Positions 1-55,103 of a DNA stretch of 64,000 bases are shown here, in pieces. The notes beneath the pieces were generated by a model. That model searched no databases. It had not been told where the DNA came from and saw nothing but the letters and a program-made list of their open reading frames with translations. Source of the stretch: a virus (Duplodnaviria; Caudoviricetes); the IMG/VR virus record IMGVR_UViG_3300031420_000495, positions 160,001 through 224,000 of that record. The stretch is one strand, 5' to 3'. Every line of letters begins with the position of its first letter. Position 1 is the first letter of the stretch. Both the position numbers and the translations under genes were made by a program.

Positions 1-308
<308 letters not shown>

Positions 309-30458: not shown

Positions 30459-31136
30459 TCAAGCGCTCGCTGGTTGTTCAGATTCATCATCGTCCTTGTT
30501 CATCATGTGCCTGATGAGCGTCAACTGATTGTTGATTTCGAGCTTCGCATTTTCGAAGATCGCTTCTTGGTCCGGAAAGCGGCGGCGAGCTTCTTTGATG
30601 CGCGGCATGAATTCTTCTTCCGTTTCTTTGACGTAGCGCTCGAGGCGCGCTGGCTTGAATACGCCGAACATCGTCGAGACGTTGTCGCAACGGTCTTTCG
30701 TTTTCACCGGTGCAGTGTCTTCGTCTTCGAAGATGGCATCGAGGCTGTACTCGGGATTTTTCTGTCCCAGTATTTCTTTCGACAGCTTCTTCAGCTTCAT
30801 GGCGATCTTCGCACCCCACTTCTGCTCGACTTCTTCGAGAGAAACCATTTTGCCGGTTTCTTTGTTCGGGTCTTCGACCGCGTCATGCAGGAACGTGAGG
30901 ATGTACACGATCACTGGATTGCGGATGTGTCGATGCATGGTCCGCAGTCGCATGAAGATGCCGAGCTGGTGAATGAACTCAGGGTCACCGCCATTGCGTT
31001 TCCCGTTGTGATGCTCGAGCCCGTACTCGAAGGCAGCTAGCACCTTGAAGTATTCTGGGTCTTGTTCAGCCATGCCGAGCAACCAGTAGCGGGTCGCAAT
31101 CACAAGCTTTTCGAACTTGTTAAGTTTGGTTTCCAT
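30459..31136 (-). CDS. HD-domain small alarmone ((p)ppGpp) hydrolase
   Basis: H.GKRNGGDPEFIH, FLHDAVED, VKTKDRCDN. Confidence 0.8.
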   Translation of the reverse strand: METKLNKFEKLVIATRYWLLGMAEQDPEYFKVLAAFEYGLEHHNGKRNGGDPEFIHQLGIFMRLRTMHRHIRNPVIVYILTFLHDAVEDPNKETGKMVSLEEVEQKWGAKIAMKLKKLSKEILGQKNPEYSLDAIFEDEDTAPVKTKDRCDNVSTMFGVFKPARLERYVKETEEEFMPRIKEARRRFPDQEAIFENAKLEINNQLTLIRHMMNKDDDESEQPASA

Positions 31137-31213
31137 GAGTTCCATTGTACACCTTTGTGGAGTGTTCTACAATTTATTTTACATTGATGATGTAAAAAGT
31201 TGTCTAGTCAACT

Positions 31214-32215
31214 TCACGTGATGATGAAGTCGTCGATGATAACGTCGAGATAATCTCGCGCTGCTTGCCTTGCGTCTTCACGAGTCCGCCACGAAGTCGG
31301 ATCGAGTTTGGCCAGCGACGGAATGGCATACTCGAACGGCGCTTCGGAATCCGGGTTGTGATGGATTTCCACTTCGTACCCGCGGTACGAGAAGGTTCGT
31401 ACACCATCAAACTTCTGGTTATACTTCTTCTCCTTGAAGAGGAAACTTACCGGGTCCTTCAGTGTCGCGAGGTTGATGTCGTGCGACACGATTTCCGAAC
31501 GTTGCACCGGACCTTTCGGACGATGCTTCTCGGGAATCTTCGCCAACTCAGCTTCGGACAGCTCACGGTCGACCAGCAGACGACGTGCAAACGTTCCGCG
31601 CTTGAAGAAGTACGGGTACGCCTCGAAGTTGACGCCTTTGTCCAGCATCATTTGACGAAGCTGCAGACCGTTCTTTCCGTTCAGCTGCTTCTGCGAATAC
31701 AGAGCTTGCGCGCCCATCGACACCGCGTTCTTCGTCGCGTCTTGTTGACGCCACAACAGAACGTGATATGCTTCTTGCAAGTTCGGCACGACGTATGCAC
31801 GTGCATCGAAGCACGGCAACAGATGAGCCTTCTGTGGCAGGTAGCCGGCGAGGTTCTTGTTGAACACGGCCGTGGCATACGATGCCGTCAGCGTCTCGAT
31901 CTTCTGGAAGCGGCCGTCGAAAACGAGTTCCGACTTGCTGTCTGGTTCGCTGGTGAAGATCAGCGTGATTTCGTCCGACTGCGTGTAGCCGATGTCGCAA
32001 TGGAAACGCTCGACCAACGCCGACATCGTAAGGATCATCAGCTCCGACAGGTCCACGTCGTATGGGCGTTTCAGACCTTTCGTGAACGTGTGGAAGTTAT
32101 TGCCATCCAAACGCACGATGAGAGGTTGGCCTTTGAAAGCCCTGCGTGAAGTTGAAGGCGCTTCGTACGCCTTCATGCGATCGCCGATTTGTGTCTTGTC
32201 AGTGCGGTCCGTCAT
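31214..32215 (-). CDS. thg1: tRNA(His) guanylyltransferase Thg1-like protein
   Basis: RMKAYE, VRLDGNNFHTFT, YTQSDEITL, CFDAR, WRQQDATKN. Confidence 0.92.
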   Translation of the reverse strand: MTDRTDKTQIGDRMKAYEAPSTSRRAFKGQPLIVRLDGNNFHTFTKGLKRPYDVDLSELMILTMSALVERFHCDIGYTQSDEITLIFTSEPDSKSELVFDGRFQKIETLTASYATAVFNKNLAGYLPQKAHLLPCFDARAYVVPNLQEAYHVLLWRQQDATKNAVSMGAQALYSQKQLNGKNGLQLRQMMLDKGVNFEAYPYFFKRGTFARRLLVDRELSEAELAKIPEKHRPKGPVQRSEIVSHDINLATLKDPVSFLFKEKKYNQKFDGVRTFSYRGYEVEIHHNPDSEAPFEYAIPSLAKLDPTSWRTREDARQAARDYLDVIIDDFIIT

Positions 32216-32477
32216 AGTCAGTTTCCGTTGGTGGGTTGCGACGCTCGCTGTTGCGAGCGTCGTTACAGTCGCTGATGTATTGCTCCAGCGTAGTGATGCG
32301 CAGAATGAATGCGGCAATCACGAATTCGGTGAGGGCAGTATGCCATTGACGATTCAGCAAGGCCATGACCATGTTGAAAAGCGTCATACCCATGATGATC
32401 CTCCAAATCCAAAGCATTGTTTGGTCTTGGTGATATGTGCTCAGATAACGGTTGAGCGACCTGCGCACTTTTGTCAT
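32199..32477 (-). CDS. membrane hypothetical protein
   Basis: Two hydrophobic segments. Confidence 0.55.
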   Translation of the reverse strand: MTKVRRSLNRYLSTYHQDQTMLWIWRIIMGMTLFNMVMALLNRQWHTALTEFVIAAFILRITTLEQYISDCNDARNSERRNPPTETDYDGPH

Positions 32478-33435: not shown

Positions 33436-35058
33436 TTAGAAGTTCGCGATGATCTGCGGTGCGGCCGAGTCGAAACCGGCGATGTCCAGCATACCGCCGT
33501 CTTTCGGATCAGCGATCGTGAACTGCGTGACCGACGTACCGATCACAACCGACTTCGCATTCTTGTTCACGTTCGCGCGGTACTTTGCGAGAGCCTGAAC
33601 AGGCGACTGACGACCCGAGTTGGTTTCGTTGTCGGTGATGATGACGAACTTGTCGACTTTGTACTTGTGCGCCGCAGCGTACTCGTAGGTCTTCGCGCAG
33701 TCGGTGCTGCCGCCGTTCCAGTTCGCTTTTTCCATCACGTTCAGCACTGCGTCGAGACGCATGCTTGGCGAGATTTTCAGTTCCACGAGGTCTTGCTTGA
33801 AACCAACCACGTGGCTGTTCGGCTGATTGCGAATCACGCCCATTGCCATACATGCCGCAACTTCCGCTGCGTTCAGGTTTGGCGAGCCGTTCACGTTCGA
33901 ACCCCACATCGAGCCGGAGATGTCGACACCTACGAGGTAGTTGTCGTCAGTCTTTTCGGCTGCGGCGAATGCAGCGTAGAACGCGTCATCCAGTGCGGTA
34001 ATGATGCGCTGATCCGGAGTCCAGACCAACGAACCACGCTCACCATGGCCGGCCTTGTACTGCTTCATTGCCTGCAGGATCGTGATTGGGTGCACGCGAC
34101 CACGACGAATTGCTTCGACGTCGGTCAGCTTTGCGACAGCCAGCTTCGAGCCTTCGGACAGCGGGCCGAATACACCGTGTGCGGACAGCGAACCCAGTTT
34201 ACGGATCAGGGCTGTCATACCCATGTTGCGGACCAGAGCCAGCAACACGTCTTTGTCTTTCAGGAACTGGGTCGGCACCATTTCCCAGGTCAGCAGGTCG
34301 GAACCTTCGATCAGACGCAGAACGTCTTTCTTGTCGGTTGCGCGCTTCAGGTACTCGAAGTCAACGAGGACTTGCGGTACTTCTGCGCCTTCTGGCAGCT
34401 CACCTTTTACGGAGTAGCGGAACAGGTTGGACTGCTGGTCGGACGATGGCTTCACGTGCGCGAGACGCAGAACGTCGCGGTGTGCCCAGCCGTTACGCTG
34501 TTGGTACTTCAGCATCTGCACTGCCAGCTTGTCGATCGTCTTGCCGGTGTACCATGCGGCAACACCACGCTTTGCTGCAGCGTTCCACTTGCCCAGCGCG
34601 TCCAACATCGACACGAACAGGAACAGGTGGGTACCGGTACGGCAGACCTTTGGCAGGGCTTCGTACGCAGCAGCGACGGTTTCGGCATTGCCGAAGACAG
34701 CAGCCAGCGCGAGCGCCACGACTGCTGGATCGTTCTTCGGAGCGCGGCCGGCGAGCGAGTATTCGACGATGCGGTTGACCACGCGCAGACCGTCTTCTTT
34801 GATGCAACGCTTGATCACATCGAAGGACATCTTCGTGGTTTCTTTCGCGCCGACGTAGTAGCCAGCGGATTCCGAACCGATCATGAGGAATCGGTCAAAC
34901 ACGCCGAAATGATCGAGCGTGAACGTGAAGGCACCGCTGTTGTTCCGCTTCATCTCTGCTTCACGGCCTGGGACCGGAGCTTGCAGTGGTGGAGTGGAAG
35001 TCTTCGCCATGTTGGTCGAAGATGCGTTTGCGAGGTCGGTGTAGATGGATGACGACAT
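33436..35058 (-). CDS. rsr: Ro60/Rsr TROVE-domain RNA-binding protein
   Basis: NNSGAFTF, RFLMIGSE.GYYV, KYQQRNGWAHRDVLRLAH, vWA DISGSM, GGSTDC, ITDNET. Confidence 0.93.
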   Translation of the reverse strand: MSSSIYTDLANASSTNMAKTSTPPLQAPVPGREAEMKRNNSGAFTFTLDHFGVFDRFLMIGSESAGYYVGAKETTKMSFDVIKRCIKEDGLRVVNRIVEYSLAGRAPKNDPAVVALALAAVFGNAETVAAAYEALPKVCRTGTHLFLFVSMLDALGKWNAAAKRGVAAWYTGKTIDKLAVQMLKYQQRNGWAHRDVLRLAHVKPSSDQQSNLFRYSVKGELPEGAEVPQVLVDFEYLKRATDKKDVLRLIEGSDLLTWEMVPTQFLKDKDVLLALVRNMGMTALIRKLGSLSAHGVFGPLSEGSKLAVAKLTDVEAIRRGRVHPITILQAMKQYKAGHGERGSLVWTPDQRIITALDDAFYAAFAAAEKTDDNYLVGVDISGSMWGSNVNGSPNLNAAEVAACMAMGVIRNQPNSHVVGFKQDLVELKISPSMRLDAVLNVMEKANWNGGSTDCAKTYEYAAAHKYKVDKFVIITDNETNSGRQSPVQALAKYRANVNKNAKSVVIGTSVTQFTIADPKDGGMLDIAGFDSAAPQIIANF

Positions 35059-35115
35059 GTGTATTTCCTTCACGATAATTTATACGGCTGCACGCGCAGC
35101 AAAGAGCAACAACTC

Positions 35116-35401
35116 ACTGAGAAACAAAATTGCAATCGAGAATTTCAGCGTGTCAAAGTTTGATCTGCCTCCAATTACGGTCAGCAGCAGTGAACGCCTA
35201 CTCCGCATGAATAGCATGCAGTAACTATCAGAGTTTCTATCTCTGCAATATCAAGTTTCAGGCACTTGCAAATTGCCGTATACCGCATACGGCGACGTCT
35301 GTTACTTCTGGCTTGTCTTTCTAACTCGCGTTAAAAGAACAGAGAGCTTTTAGTTTTCAGTTTACGATTAAAGGATAATCGATACGCGGCGGTTTCTCAG
35401 T
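35116..35401 (-). ncRNA. long (286 nt) Y-RNA-like RNA candidate
   Basis: Ends pair (ACUGAGAAAC/GUUUCUCAGU), bulged C, upper stem AUCGA/UCGAU followed by UUAUCC; next to rsr. Confidence 0.55.
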
Positions 35402-35423
35402 TTGTTGAAGTTATGACCTAGTG

Positions 35424-35508
35424 AAAAGAGCGACAAAGATACAGGAACGGATTTCAATTGGGCGTCCGAAGACAATAATGGAGATAACCGTAAACCTTTC
35501 GGTCGCTT
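35424..35508 (-). ncRNA. Y RNA candidate
   Basis: AGCGAC-C-GAAAGGUUUACGG-UUAUCUC...CCGU...CUUUGUCGCU-CUUUU; next to rsr. Confidence 0.75.
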
Positions 35509-35772
35509 AGTTCATTGTGGGCTTTATGATATTGCCCACTCGATTCGCTACAGTTTCTGCTGCAGCATCAATCTATATATGCATTATACAACGTGTTTTT
35601 GAACTTTTGGAACTTTATTTTTGTTCAACCGGTTTGACTGGTTCGAACAGATGGCCATCGCCATCAGGTGCAGAACATGGACCGGTGCGCGAGACACTAT
35701 CACACCAAATACATTTCCACACCAGCTTTGCGCGTTCGTCATCAGTCAGTGCAGACATTCAACGACGATCGC

Positions 35773-36351
35773 TCATTTCGCAGTTTCCTTTGCGTACAAG
35801 ATATTCTCGACACAAGCGAAGATCATACCAGGAATTTCGGGGATTTGTGCGATTCCGTTGACAATATTTGCGGGACCGTAGTACGTCATCTCGTCCGGCG
35901 TGTCGTGCTTAGGCTGCTGCACGATGATGAACTGGTAGATGTCTTTGTCACGGTACGAACCGATGACGGGTCCGGTGTCGACGACTTTCACGACTTCGAT
36001 GCCAGCTGCTTTCAAAGTCTCCATTATTTCTTCGGTCGGAATTTCTTCGCCGGCAGCTTGACGTTCGGCAATTTTCGCAACAGCTTCCAGCCGAGCGCGA
36101 TCGTATTCTTCCGCTTTGTTGATGCGATCTGCTTCAGCAATCTCTTCCGGCGGAATCGTGGACGCCAGAATGTTGACGGTGACGAACAGGCATATCGCGT
36201 AGCTGATGAACCCGAATGGAATCAGCAGCAACCATGCGAGCGGAACCAGATACGTACCTGCCCACCATCCAGCTGCGAACATGATTACCCACCATGCAAT
36301 CTTGCAGCGACGAAGAGCCTTCTTCAGACGCTTGTCCATTTTCTCAGTCAT
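35773..36351 (-). CDS. membrane hypothetical protein
   Basis: N-terminal TM segments. Confidence 0.65.
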   Translation of the reverse strand: MTEKMDKRLKKALRRCKIAWWVIMFAAGWWAGTYLVPLAWLLLIPFGFISYAICLFVTVNILASTIPPEEIAEADRINKAEEYDRARLEAVAKIAERQAAGEEIPTEEIMETLKAAGIEVVKVVDTGPVIGSYRDKDIYQFIIVQQPKHDTPDEMTYYGPANIVNGIAQIPEIPGMIFACVENILYAKETAK

Positions 36352-36384
36352 GTTCTTCTCCCAAATAGAATTCATTGTACCATG

Positions 36385-53761: not shown

Positions 53762-54296
53762 CGTTATATGACCGGCAAACGTGATCGACGTGTTTCAGCA
53801 TCGATGGAATGCGGAACTTGCCGTGCATCGTTGCAATGCATTCACGTGCAGCTTGCGGATCACCACCAATGCTCGTGACGAACAACGGTTTCGTATCGCT
53901 GCGAACGACTTGGCATTCGTCAGGTGTGCCGGCGAAATACGTCTTCGCAACACCGATGACTGGAATTTGCGTTTCGTTGTAGAGGTGTGCGCCAAGTCCA
54001 TCGTGCTGATCTTCGCCAAGACGGACATAGCCATCGACGATGATGCAACCGAGCTTGACATTGACATGCTTCAAGATTTCCATGATGCATGGAAGCTCAC
54101 GCTTGTAGAAAGCGCCTGGCTCGTAATCTTGAACATCATGAATGACCGCAGTGATGACAGCGCATTCTTCGCTGTCCCAGTCTTGGAACAAGACGCCTGC
54201 CGCTACTGCGTAGCCGTCGCGATAGTCTACGTCGCAGACGAGAATCGCGTTGTCACTGATTTCTTGGGATGGAATTGTTTTCGGTGTGAACATCAT
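53745..54296 (-). CDS. nfi: endonuclease V-like protein
   Basis: DVDY, YEPGAFYKRELP, IIVDGY, IGVAKT. Confidence 0.85.
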   Translation of the reverse strand: MMFTPKTIPSQEISDNAILVCDVDYRDGYAVAAGVLFQDWDSEECAVITAVIHDVQDYEPGAFYKRELPCIMEILKHVNVKLGCIIVDGYVRLGEDQHDGLGAHLYNETQIPVIGVAKTYFAGTPDECQVVRSDTKPLFVTSIGGDPQAARECIATMHGKFRIPSMLKHVDHVCRSYNAVQST

Positions 54297-54415
54297 TCTG
54301 ATGTTTGATTGAGGACGATTAAAACTGCGATGCAGAGAATCAGCACCCAGAAGAAAGGGCTGTGCAGCAGATGACGGAGCATATCGTAAATGTCCATAAT
54401 ATCCTCAAGGGAAAG

Positions 54416-54491
54416 TGGTGCCCACGCTCAGCCTCGAACTGAGTCCTCATCCTTACGAGAGATGCGTACCACCAGCTAATACTTCGCGGGC
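54416..54491 (-). tRNA. tRNA-Thr(CGU)
   Basis: CAUCU-CUCGUAA-GGAUG, CCA. Confidence 0.85.
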
Positions 54492-54496
54492 ATTAT

Positions 54497-54685
54497 TTAT
54501 TTTTCAGTCATGTTATACTTGTATGACGTATAGTCGATAACTTTTCCGTTATCGCACGTCATACGAAGATGCATGCCAGTTACCTTTTCCAATTTGCCAT
54601 CGCAAACTTTTTGTGGAATCGGCTCTGTCTTCGGGCCGCAAGCCGTCAGCAGAGAAACTAAACCGAAAATGGCAATGATCTTCAT
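54497..54685 (-). CDS. small lipoprotein
   Basis: LTAC lipobox. Confidence 0.7.
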   Translation of the reverse strand: MKIIAIFGLVSLLTACGPKTEPIPQKVCDGKLEKVTGMHLRMTCDNGKVIDYTSYKYNMTEK

Positions 54686-54705
54686 ATAAACTTTCGTGAT
54701 TCAAA

Positions 54706-54786
54706 ACAAACAACTGAGGGGTTTCGGCTACCGCCCTGGTCTATAGTGCCAGGTGTTTCGCCTCCAGAAACGCCTTCAGTTGTTTG
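54706..54786 (-). ncRNA. structured hairpin RNA candidate
   Basis: CAAACAACUGA.../...UCAGUUGUUUG long stem. Confidence 0.3.
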
Positions 54787-54833
54787 CTCTAAAAGGGAAC
54801 CGCCGAAGCGGTTCCACAGATACAACTTACTTC

Positions 54834-55103
54834 TTAGCGGACGCTGCCACGACGGATCAGGTTCACGATGGCGAGCAGAATCACTGCGCCGAGGAACGAG
54901 GTCAGAAGCGACGCGATGCTGAAGTCGTCACCATTGATAGTACCGGTGCCGAACAGCGGAGACAGAAGCCAACCACCGAGGAACGCGCCGACGATACCAA
55001 CGACGACGTTCAGGATGATGCCTTGCTGTCCATCAGTACGCATCACCATGCTAGCGAGCCAGCCGATGATACCACCGATTACGAGCCAAAGAATGAATGT
55101 CAT
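54834..55103 (-). CDS. GlsB/YeaQ/YmgE stress membrane protein
   Basis: IIGGIIGWLAS..GIILNVVVGIVGAFLGG..GAVILL. Confidence 0.92.
   Translation of the reverse strand: MTFILWLVIGGIIGWLASMVMRTDGQQGIILNVVVGIVGAFLGGWLLSPLFGTGTINGDDFSIASLLTSFLGAVILLAIVNLIRRGSVR

Follow-up and report, generated by a model that had tools for sequence, protein, structure and literature searches.

A candidate giant Y RNA with a Ro60-type handle and a large conserved interior upstream of rsr in jumbo phages

Upstream of the rsr gene of an uncultured tailed virus (Duplodnaviria; Caudoviricetes), we found a structured RNA element of 286 nucleotides (nt) that we read, with a probability of roughly 0.7, as a very large member or variant of the Y RNAs in a PaBG-like jumbo phage, where it would bind Rsr, the phage's own orthologue of Ro60. 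The element lies in a 64,000-nt stretch of DNA (the window), which spans positions 160,001 to 224,000 of the 257-kb IMG/VR virus record IMGVR_UViG_3300031420_000495; all RNA elements are read on the minus strand, with RNA position n corresponding to window position 35402-n (Table 1). Y RNAs are seen as two-module adaptors of about 100 nt, in which a Ro60 handle is joined to a small effector module that sets what is tethered. An initial annotation had proposed a Ro-binding handle that carries an unusually large effector domain, and this proposal gained support from a covarying handle of Ro type, a true Ro60 orthologue next to it, and a conserved interior that matches no known family. A Y RNA handle joined to a very large effector domain that matches no Rfam family is what is new here, and our search of the literature found no paper on a Y RNA of such size or on a Y-like RNA from this phage group.

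Terminal handle of the giant RNA

The 10-mer ACTGAGAAAC occurs twice in the window, once per strand (35116-35125 and 35392-35401), where about 0.2 occurrences are expected by chance. Because the two copies stand on opposite strands, the giant RNA is closed by a perfect 10-base-pair terminal stem, P1, at exactly the coordinates that had been predicted for it. Within P1, the annotated bulge, the upper stem AUCGA/UCGAU (P2) and the UUAUC motif were all present, with the upper stem extended by an additional GCG/UGC (P2b). The 3′ side of the handle presents, in order, CUGAAAUUC, UCGAU, UGCAAUUUU and then the G of stem P1. The same layout had been claimed for two short candidates, and we recognized it in the short RNA at 35508-35424, which reads GCGAC-C-G ... 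ACGG-UUAUC ... CCGU ... UUUG-UCGC. As the folding energy of the single giant sequence is unremarkable (z = -1.66), the evidence beyond chance comes from comparative data.

Chen et al. (2014, PMC4201824) define bacterial Y RNAs by their terminal stem, by a motif of the GNCGAA type, which is akin to GGUCCGA in vertebrates, and by a YUAY with which the loop begins. All three features occur in the giant RNA, as RRC-C-G, UUUUG and UUAUC. Its C-C-G corresponds to the GGUCCGA and GNCGAA motifs of known Y RNAs (PMC4201824) and aligns, via the short paralogue, with the CCGG of the Rfam sbRNA consensus, while its UUAUC is the YUAY of Chen 2014. With AAC-CGCCG, the window RNA does not reproduce the full bacterial consensus GNCGAAN0-1G letter for letter. 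Of the traits of the broad Y RNA class, a position near rsr on the same strand, a terminal stem, a helix with the C-C-G bulge and UUAUC are found in the element, and a size of about 80-130 nt is not.

Metazoan Y RNAs and nematode sbRNAs (RF00019, RF01656) share with the giant RNA the paired ends, a bulged C in C-C-G that faces a U-rich 3′ strand, and an upper stem followed by GGUUAUC, the sbRNA consensus being UCGGUCCGGaG...GGGUUAUC. They are partners of Ro60, and the giant RNA, which adjoins rsr, would by analogy pair with Rsr. They differ in being 70-130 nt long with a simple loop, whereas the giant RNA has 286 nt, about eight inner helices and a phage as its carrier. One link came from a 67-nt short RNA at the equivalent position upstream of the giant RNA in a related locus (L029:1019-1085), which scored 37.0 bits against RF01656 (ceN72-3_ceN74-2), where the gathering score is 38, with a local E-value of 6e-6 and a match that runs through ...CCGGAG-stem-GGUUAUC... 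and ...stem-CAC...CUU-stem. Judged by its sequence, this phage RNA comes almost within the eukaryotic type of Y RNA.

A second link was provided by the cultured Vibrio jumbo phage BONAISHI (MH595538.1), which leaves an unannotated gap of 764 nt upstream of its Ro gene (L297:1752-2515, at about 54226-54989 of the record, reverse strand). Within this gap we located a short Y-like RNA of about 63 nt (L297:1988-2050) that is not annotated in the record, as well as two matches to the Rfam YrlA model, neither of them annotated, at L297:2093-2212 (35.8 bits) and 2295-2406 (59.3 bits), the first of which spans L297:2082-2223 by the pairing of its handle. The BONAISHI YrlA handles follow the scheme stem-C|CG...AAGGUUAU...UUUUUG|stem, with GGUUAU in correspondence to the GnUUAnC of the giant RNAs. 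Together, the three features of Chen et al., the sbRNA score of the short RNA in L029, and the YrlA handles of BONAISHI identify the handle of the giant RNA as that of a Y RNA.

Conservation and covariation among related loci

A search with Rsr yielded 75 related loci from IMG/VR and metagenomes, several of them on contigs of 330-376 kb. To these we applied a rule with four requirements: no fewer than eight of nine pairs in the stem, a CG that follows the 5′ arm, UUAnC no farther than about 35 nt away, and UUnG ahead of the 3′ arm. Most loci contained an RNA that satisfied this rule, 221-361 nt in length and positioned upstream of rsr, with its end in the usual case 36-72 nt from the start codon. 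Altogether, more than 50 related uncultured jumbo-phage loci carry a giant RNA upstream of rsr, and 36 distinct sequences entered the alignment. Across these 36 sequences, the C-C-G and GnUUAnC columns are invariant and a U-rich UUUUG precedes the 3′ arm of P1, while P1 itself takes 32 distinct forms, all complementary: its positions 1-6 show all four Watson-Crick pair types, and its last pair is always C-G. Among the P1 cells, 270 of 288 pair, as compared to 153 ± 8 when the 3′ arms were dealt to other sequences, in a set for which the rule itself tolerated at most one mismatch in nine. P2 was found in 14 distinct, fully paired variants. The initial annotation had named covariation in homologous rsr loci as a check on its proposal, and the outcome was a conserved handle with massive covariation.

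We also examined the family by means that are independent of the P1 rule. RNAalifold reported compensatory changes in 35 of 52 pairs in one subgroup and in 15 of 30 in the subgroup of the window. A covariance model (R1) built from the 3′ half, with no P1 pairing and with five base pairs only, as MAFFT had put the hairpin registers out of phase, added further loci (L076, L054, L011, L020 and L030), which again have complementary P1 arms. In 53 of 77 sources this model gave exactly one match per locus, in every case shortly before rsr and in the same orientation, and in the whole 257-kb genome it gave one match, i.e., the element is single copy. It found no match in mycobacteriophage Rizal or in Vibrio phage BONAISHI. 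Two motif scans, one with the inner block and one with a three-anchor pattern, added no viral members and gave nothing but chance matches among 185,579 bacterial genomes. In 50,697 cultured phage genomes, a blastn search with the locus found no homologue of the RNA.

Interior domain

The interior of about 240 nt is conserved and covarying, with about eight conserved inner helices. P3 occurs as 18 distinct helices in 20 sequences. The stem of the hairpin at RNA positions 109-127 differs in sequence yet remains paired in L048, L049, L052 and L007. The loop of hpT follows the consensus nUCGAAA / nUCGUAA / AUAGAAA, and for hpX four of the five modelled pairs show compensatory changes in the 53-sequence model alignment, with an invariant GUAG. 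Toward its 3′ end the interior passes into a variable stretch, for which close relatives have GNRA hairpins. The site of the 109-127 hairpin is taken, in a sister subgroup, by a probable H-type pseudoknot with five covarying variants, found by inspection (for example GAGG..CCAGAU..CCUC..AUCUGG), while the window RNA forms only a simple hairpin at this site. Of the three annotated internal helices, GCCGUAU/AUACGGC (35293-35275) and CAGAG/CUCUG (35245-35229) both stand as covarying hairpins, while the long-range helix AGUAAC/GUUACU had to be given up: AGUAAC lies in the 3′ strand of the covarying P3, and GUUAC consists of a conserved linker and the start of another hairpin.

The giant RNA shows little sign of protein coding, with only scattered open reading frames (ORFs) of at most 59 amino acids (aa) on either strand and with homologue lengths that are not multiples of three. 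The most enriched 4-mer in the 36 giant RNAs is UAGG, with 69 observed occurrences versus 28 expected (z 7.6, a score that overstates independence, as do the other 4-mer scores, the sequences being related). UAGG stands mostly as RUAGG right after hairpins, a pattern that suggests repeated hairpin-linker units; GAAA, ACCG, GCCG and CGAA are enriched as well. We considered whether the interior might be an array of extra CGAA motifs for Ro60 binding and did not adopt this idea: the family has 96 occurrences versus 63 expected, and the window RNA has none.

The loop sequence GCGG (35283-35286) of the 109-127 hairpin is the complement of CCGC (35386-35389), a part of the handle's internal loop, and in L007 the loop reads GCGA and the handle UCGC, a compensatory change. 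Such a contact between loop and handle could gate the binding of Rsr, and we mention it as a lead only; a kissing-loop was not adopted, as only one compensatory event speaks for it, P2b would be in competition with it, and other subgroups do not bear it out consistently.

Separate RNA or leader of rsr

Because no terminator was found in a scan between the RNAs and rsr, co-transcription of the RNAs with rsr is likely. This raises the alternative that the giant RNA is a cis-acting leader, i.e., a large 5′ untranslated region that controls the translation or stability of rsr, perhaps with feedback by Rsr. Indeed, element and gene share a strand, with 57 nt between the end of the former and the rsr ATG; the corresponding gap is only 36-72 nt in most loci; and in the true leader, too, an Rsr-type CCG comes after a conserved hairpin, so that autoregulation is conceivable. 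In several relatives, however, the two are separated by a gene: L015 carries a GIY-YIG/NUMOD3 homing endonuclease gene of 247 aa between giant RNA and rsr (L015:798-1541), and L017, L018 and L021 carry a conserved ORF of about 70 aa (MEKLS...) there, while the small leader hairpin stays beside the ribosome-binding site of rsr in the latter three. Moreover, in L003 and L013 a TGnTAAAAT box stands about 8 nt before P1 of the giant RNA, a position from which transcription in L013 would start at the first paired base of the giant RNA.

Sequences from RNA libraries pointed in the same direction. We compared four public runs, as contigs and not as reads, with 3.4 kb around the locus. Two metatranscriptome runs yielded contigs only at 35229-35399 and 35197-35416, with 95-99% identity, and no contig on rsr or the flanking genes within the 3.4 kb; two runs of unspecified type yielded contigs at 35079-35412 and 35140-35342. 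With regard to a separate RNA, these contigs are suggestive only. In one RNA run (X10), the contig covers the 5′ part of the giant RNA and continues beyond 35416 into what, in RNA sense, resembles the T arm and 3′ acceptor strand of a tRNA (GGUUCGAAUCC...); the relative in that run thus seems to have a tRNA gene directly upstream, possibly co-transcribed with the giant RNA.

From the inserted genes, the box in L013 and the contigs that lie on the RNA only, we conclude that the giant RNA is probably not merely a leader of rsr. The scenario that would have undone the initial annotation, an unprocessed 5′ untranslated region of rsr with no conserved stem, is likewise contradicted by the conserved stem, the inserted genes and the RNA-only contigs. 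Furthermore, the closure of both ends by a long covarying stem is the design of a Y RNA, and proximity to rsr is no peculiarity of leaders, since in M. smegmatis, too, Y RNAs encoded upstream of rsr are co-transcribed and undergo processing afterwards (PMC4201824). We therefore consider a purely cis-acting leader unlikely, and return to the Y RNA reading.

The true leader has a structure of its own, a small hairpin between the giant RNA and the ribosome-binding site, with covarying equivalents in L001-L005, L017, L018, L037 and L078 (GCUGC/GCAGC, GCUAUC/GAUAGC, UUGGCC/GGCUAA and others). A terminal C followed by CG(U/A)A gives it the stem-C|CG signature that also marks the Y handles. The hairpin could be a site of autoregulation by Rsr or a 5′ stabilizer that is left after processing.

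Comparison with known RNA families

Scanning the whole window with Rfam 15 at gathering scores returned tRNAs only and no family that matches the giant RNA. At E <= 10, the sole match on the locus was a chance hit to RAGATH-27 (18.8 bits versus a cutoff of 76). RF01656 and RF00019 gave no match on the giant RNA, which is a weak test, as an insertion of 240 nt lies beyond the span of these models. ARAGORN detected no tRNA or tmRNA in the giant RNA, its region, or the giant RNAs of relatives.

Among known systems, YrlA (RF02553) resembles the giant RNA in three respects: it closely precedes rsr in the same orientation, it has a second and shorter Y RNA as its neighbor, and it carries the same handle signature; processing from a common precursor, as in M. 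smegmatis, where YrlA and YrlB lie upstream of rsr and are processed from one precursor (PMC4201824), is probable for the giant RNA too. The difference lies in the effector module, which in YrlA is a tRNA mimic of about 75 nt with T, acceptor-like and D arms, whereas the giant RNA has a different domain of about 240 nt; judged by the covariance model and ARAGORN, the tRNA-like module that marks YrlA is absent from it. One could nevertheless imagine a degenerate, expanded YrlA that is still a tRNA mimic, with hpT-hpX-UAGG derived from the T arm, acceptor-like stem and U8A9-D arm. The order of elements does resemble the YrlA consensus (uGUu, T arm, hairpin, UAG...), hpT loops read nUCGAAn, L056 contains a 13-nt string, GCUCAGUUGGUUA, identical to one from a tRNA D-arm/loop, and the giant RNA occupies the genomic position of YrlA. 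However, the YrlA model found no match at E <= 10 in the window region, in 14 relatives or in L056, and on the whole genome its matches were confined to the tRNA array, while it did detect both control phages, Rizal (36.1 bits) and BONAISHI (59.3 and 35.8 bits). The negative ARAGORN result on the giant RNA and its relatives, the linker of 7-9 nt between hpT and hpX, the lack of a conserved D arm, and the window's hpT loop AUAGAAA, which does not follow the T-loop consensus, argue against this explanation as well, and we regard it as highly improbable. Descent from a YrlA-like ancestor is possible; membership in the YrlA family is not borne out.

ROOL and GOLLD are large ornate phage-associated RNAs of several hundred nt, highly structured and both in Rfam, whose biochemical function is not established. 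That phages carry such RNAs, together with the large, conserved and complex interior with its GNRA loop, probable pseudoknot and UAGG enrichment, and with the absence of a match to any Y-type model, speaks for an independent ornate RNA (a ribozyme, a protein sponge or some other scaffold) that merely shares the rsr locus and whose closing stem is not bound by Rsr. Yet the invariant residues are exactly those of a Y RNA handle (CCG bulge, GGUUAUC and U-run) and not just those of a generic stem, the giant RNA was found only beside rsr, and its position is that of the YrlA-type RNAs in other Ro-encoding phages. Unlike ROOL and GOLLD, moreover, it lacks an Rfam match and has another architecture, a recognizable handle of a putatively protein-binding type, and an obligate neighboring protein gene. 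An independent RNA is, in our judgement, quite improbable, and the Y RNA reading remains the one that we prefer.

Two further systems bear on this preferred reading. In Thermus phage phiLo, two Y-like RNAs (Yrl1 and Yrl2) precede the Ro60 gene as well, the CG(AA) motif of the handle is needed for binding, and the proposed role is the capture of host PNPase (PMC12135203). Unlike the giant RNA, the phiLo Yrl RNAs are small stem-bulge-stem structures (Yrl2 about 60 nt) without a large conserved effector domain, and phiRo60 is only distantly related to the Rsr of the window (E 1e-5). The Yrn1 RNA of D. radiodurans (RYPER: Rsr-Y RNA-PNPase) offers a working model in which one end binds Rsr and the other an effector protein; it differs in its length of about 120 nt and its few stem-loops with some tRNA-like features, and we detected no sequence similarity between it and the giant RNA.

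Genomic context

The rsr gene carries the Pfam domains TROVE and vWA_Ro60, and its product matches Xenopus Ro60 (PDB 1YVP) over the whole length at E 2e-97, with human RO60 and D. radiodurans Rsr (2NVO) also similar over the whole length; by these similarities it is classed as a true Ro60/Rsr orthologue. A tail sheath gene in the window shares 40-44% identity with its counterparts in Pseudomonas jumbo phage PaBG and in phage NCTB, which are the nearest cultured relatives by this marker; Pseudomonas phages were absent among the 359 phage records that matched Rsr. The window also holds a tRNA array with at least 17 tRNA genes (Rfam scan).

Downstream of rsr (30459-32317), the window encodes a Thg1-like 3′-5′ nucleotidyltransferase and an HD phosphohydrolase, and these enzymes recur a few kb downstream of rsr in L001, L003, L004 and L036. 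On the upstream side, a protein of 200 aa with no assigned function (35773-36375) is syntenic in many related loci. Ro proteins of jumbo phages have been grouped with RNA-repair genes (PMC7824862).

Short RNAs homologous to that of the window measure 117-147 nt in relatives. Between the promoter-like box and the short RNA (35510-35580, minus strand) we noted two more hairpins that covary with L001 (GCUGCAGC.../GCUGCAAC...; GUGGGC...GCCCAC versus GCAGACC...GGUCUGC), and the first segment of the transcript may be a structured RNA longer than 85 nt. The promoter-like box, TGTATAAT, was not called by a generic promoter scan.

Table 1. Coordinates of the giant RNA, its parts and neighboring features in the window.
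Feature	Window position	RNA position	Strand	Remarks
Giant Y-like RNA, 286 nt	35116..35401		-	predicted from sequence; homologues of 221-361 nt in >50 rsr loci
P1 5′ strand ACUGAGAAAC	35392..35401	1-10	-	perfect 10-bp pairing with 35116-35125
C-C-G (last P1 pair C, bulged C, G)	35390..35392		-	putative Ro60-binding-type motif; invariant in 36/36
P2b+P2 5′ strand GCG-U-AUCGA	35379..35387	15-23	-	pairs with 35132-35139
UUAUC motif directly 3′ of P2	35374..35378	24-28	-	GnUUAnC invariant
P3 helix UCUGUU.../...AACAGA	35298..35343	59-68 / 94-104	-	encloses P4 and conserved strand GAAAGACAAGCC
P4 hairpin UAAC-GCGA-GUUA, four pairs		69-80	-	GNRA loop GCGA; pairs covary
Hairpin GCCGUAU-GCGGU-AUACGGC	35275..35293	109-127	-	conserved loop UGCGGUA; stem varies yet pairs
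P5 hairpin CAAGU-GCCUGAA-ACUUG	35252..35268	134-150	-	homologues with loop GCCGAAAAU; pairs covary
hpT hairpin CAGAG-AUAGAAA-CUCUG	35229..35245	157-173	-	flanks GAUAUUG and AUAGUUA; stem covaries
hpX hairpin CUGCAUG...CAUGCGG, then (G)UGUAGG	35197..35221	181-199 (hairpin)	-	here AGUAGG
Variable stretch, lineage-specific hairpins	35149..35196	206-253	-	length and sequence vary
Conserved 3′ block CUGAAAUUC	35140..35148	254-262	-	just before P2 3′ strand; family consensus YYGAARUYU
P2+P2b 3′ strand UCGAU-UGC	35132..35139	263-270	-	compensatory pairs
AAUUUU, internal-loop 3′ strand facing CCG	35126..35131		-	family consensus UUUU before G of P1
P1 3′ strand GUUUCUCAGU	35116..35125	277-286	-	pairs with 5′ strand; compensatory changes
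Short Y-like RNA, 85 nt	35424..35508		-	predicted from sequence; same handle; immediately upstream
Promoter-like TGTATAAT, then conserved start region GCATATATA	35583..35590		-	conserved in L001 and L002
rsr-leader hairpin GCUGC-GCGU-GCAGC, then CCGUA	35087..35100		-	between giant RNA and ribosome-binding site
rsr (Ro60 orthologue, 540 aa)	33436..35058		-	ATG at 35058; Pfam TROVE and vWA_Ro60

Discussion

We infer that the giant RNA binds Rsr and is processed to a discrete species of about 290 nt. In the mechanism that we envisage, transcription would start from a phage promoter near 35590 and run jointly through the short Y RNA, the giant RNA and rsr, after which the giant RNA would be excised from the precursor, protected by its paired ends (P1) and by bound Rsr. 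Rsr would bind the bulged handle, made up of P1, the C-C-G / UUUU internal loop, P2 and UUAUC, while the interior of about 240 nt, with P3 and the GNRA-capped P4, the hairpin or pseudoknot, P5, hpT, hpX, the RUAGG linkers and the YGAAAUYU block, would act as an effector module that tethers the Rsr ring to another factor and may also gate access to the ring. As the element combines a Ro60-type handle with an inner domain that exceeds those of all characterized Y RNAs two- to threefold, it probably tethers Ro60 to a partner factor, by analogy with the known systems. The most likely candidate would be a host exoribonuclease such as PNPase: in phage phiLo, the two Yrl RNAs upstream of Ro60 form a complex with host PNPase in which the enzyme is dampened (PMC12135203).

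Several points weigh against a giant Y RNA of this kind. Its size of 286 nt (221-361 nt in the family) is far outside the 80-130 nt of characterized Y RNAs (PMC4201824), and the Y-type models of Rfam do not match it. The predicted binding of Rsr is read from sequence, and the partner is a guess by analogy. As the scan placed no terminator between the RNAs and rsr, processing would have to generate any discrete species. The RNA-library contigs are few, at a depth of 2-3, their ends and strand are not readable, and the runs had been chosen with this same sequence, with DNA carry-over being possible. Finally, the P1 pairing statistic is in part a product of the selection rule, a concern that is mitigated by the compensatory changes that RNAalifold reported in the subgroups and by the complementary arms in the loci that were added by the P1-blind model.

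A different emphasis, which we put forward tentatively and consider somewhat unlikely, would place the weight on the interior as an RNA domain not described before, which folds independently and combines a three-way region capped by a GNRA loop, a hairpin or pseudoknot, and hairpin-RUAGG repeats. It would make of phage Rsr a novel type of ribonucleoprotein that recruits a partner other than PNPase for RNA repair or counter-defence during jumbo-phage infection. Candidates for such a partner are the nearby tRNA-end repair enzymes (the Thg1-like 3′-5′ polymerase and the HD phosphohydrolase) or a host defence nuclease. In phage Bas63, a Ro60-like protein counters the ppl defence system (PMC11482910).

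If the giant Y RNA reading is true, the adaptor principle of Y RNAs would scale to large and complex folds, with a conserved and covarying effector module of 200-300 nt as a third type of module, in addition to the tRNA mimic found in YrlA and the simple loops known from metazoan Y RNAs. As the handle is easily mutated and RNA and protein are encoded side by side, the whole ribonucleoprotein could be rebuilt from a single cassette of 2.2 kb. The family would thus offer an entry point to the poorly understood role of phage-encoded Ro60, for which the capture of PNPase (PMC12135203) and counter-defence (PMC11482910) are the present hints.

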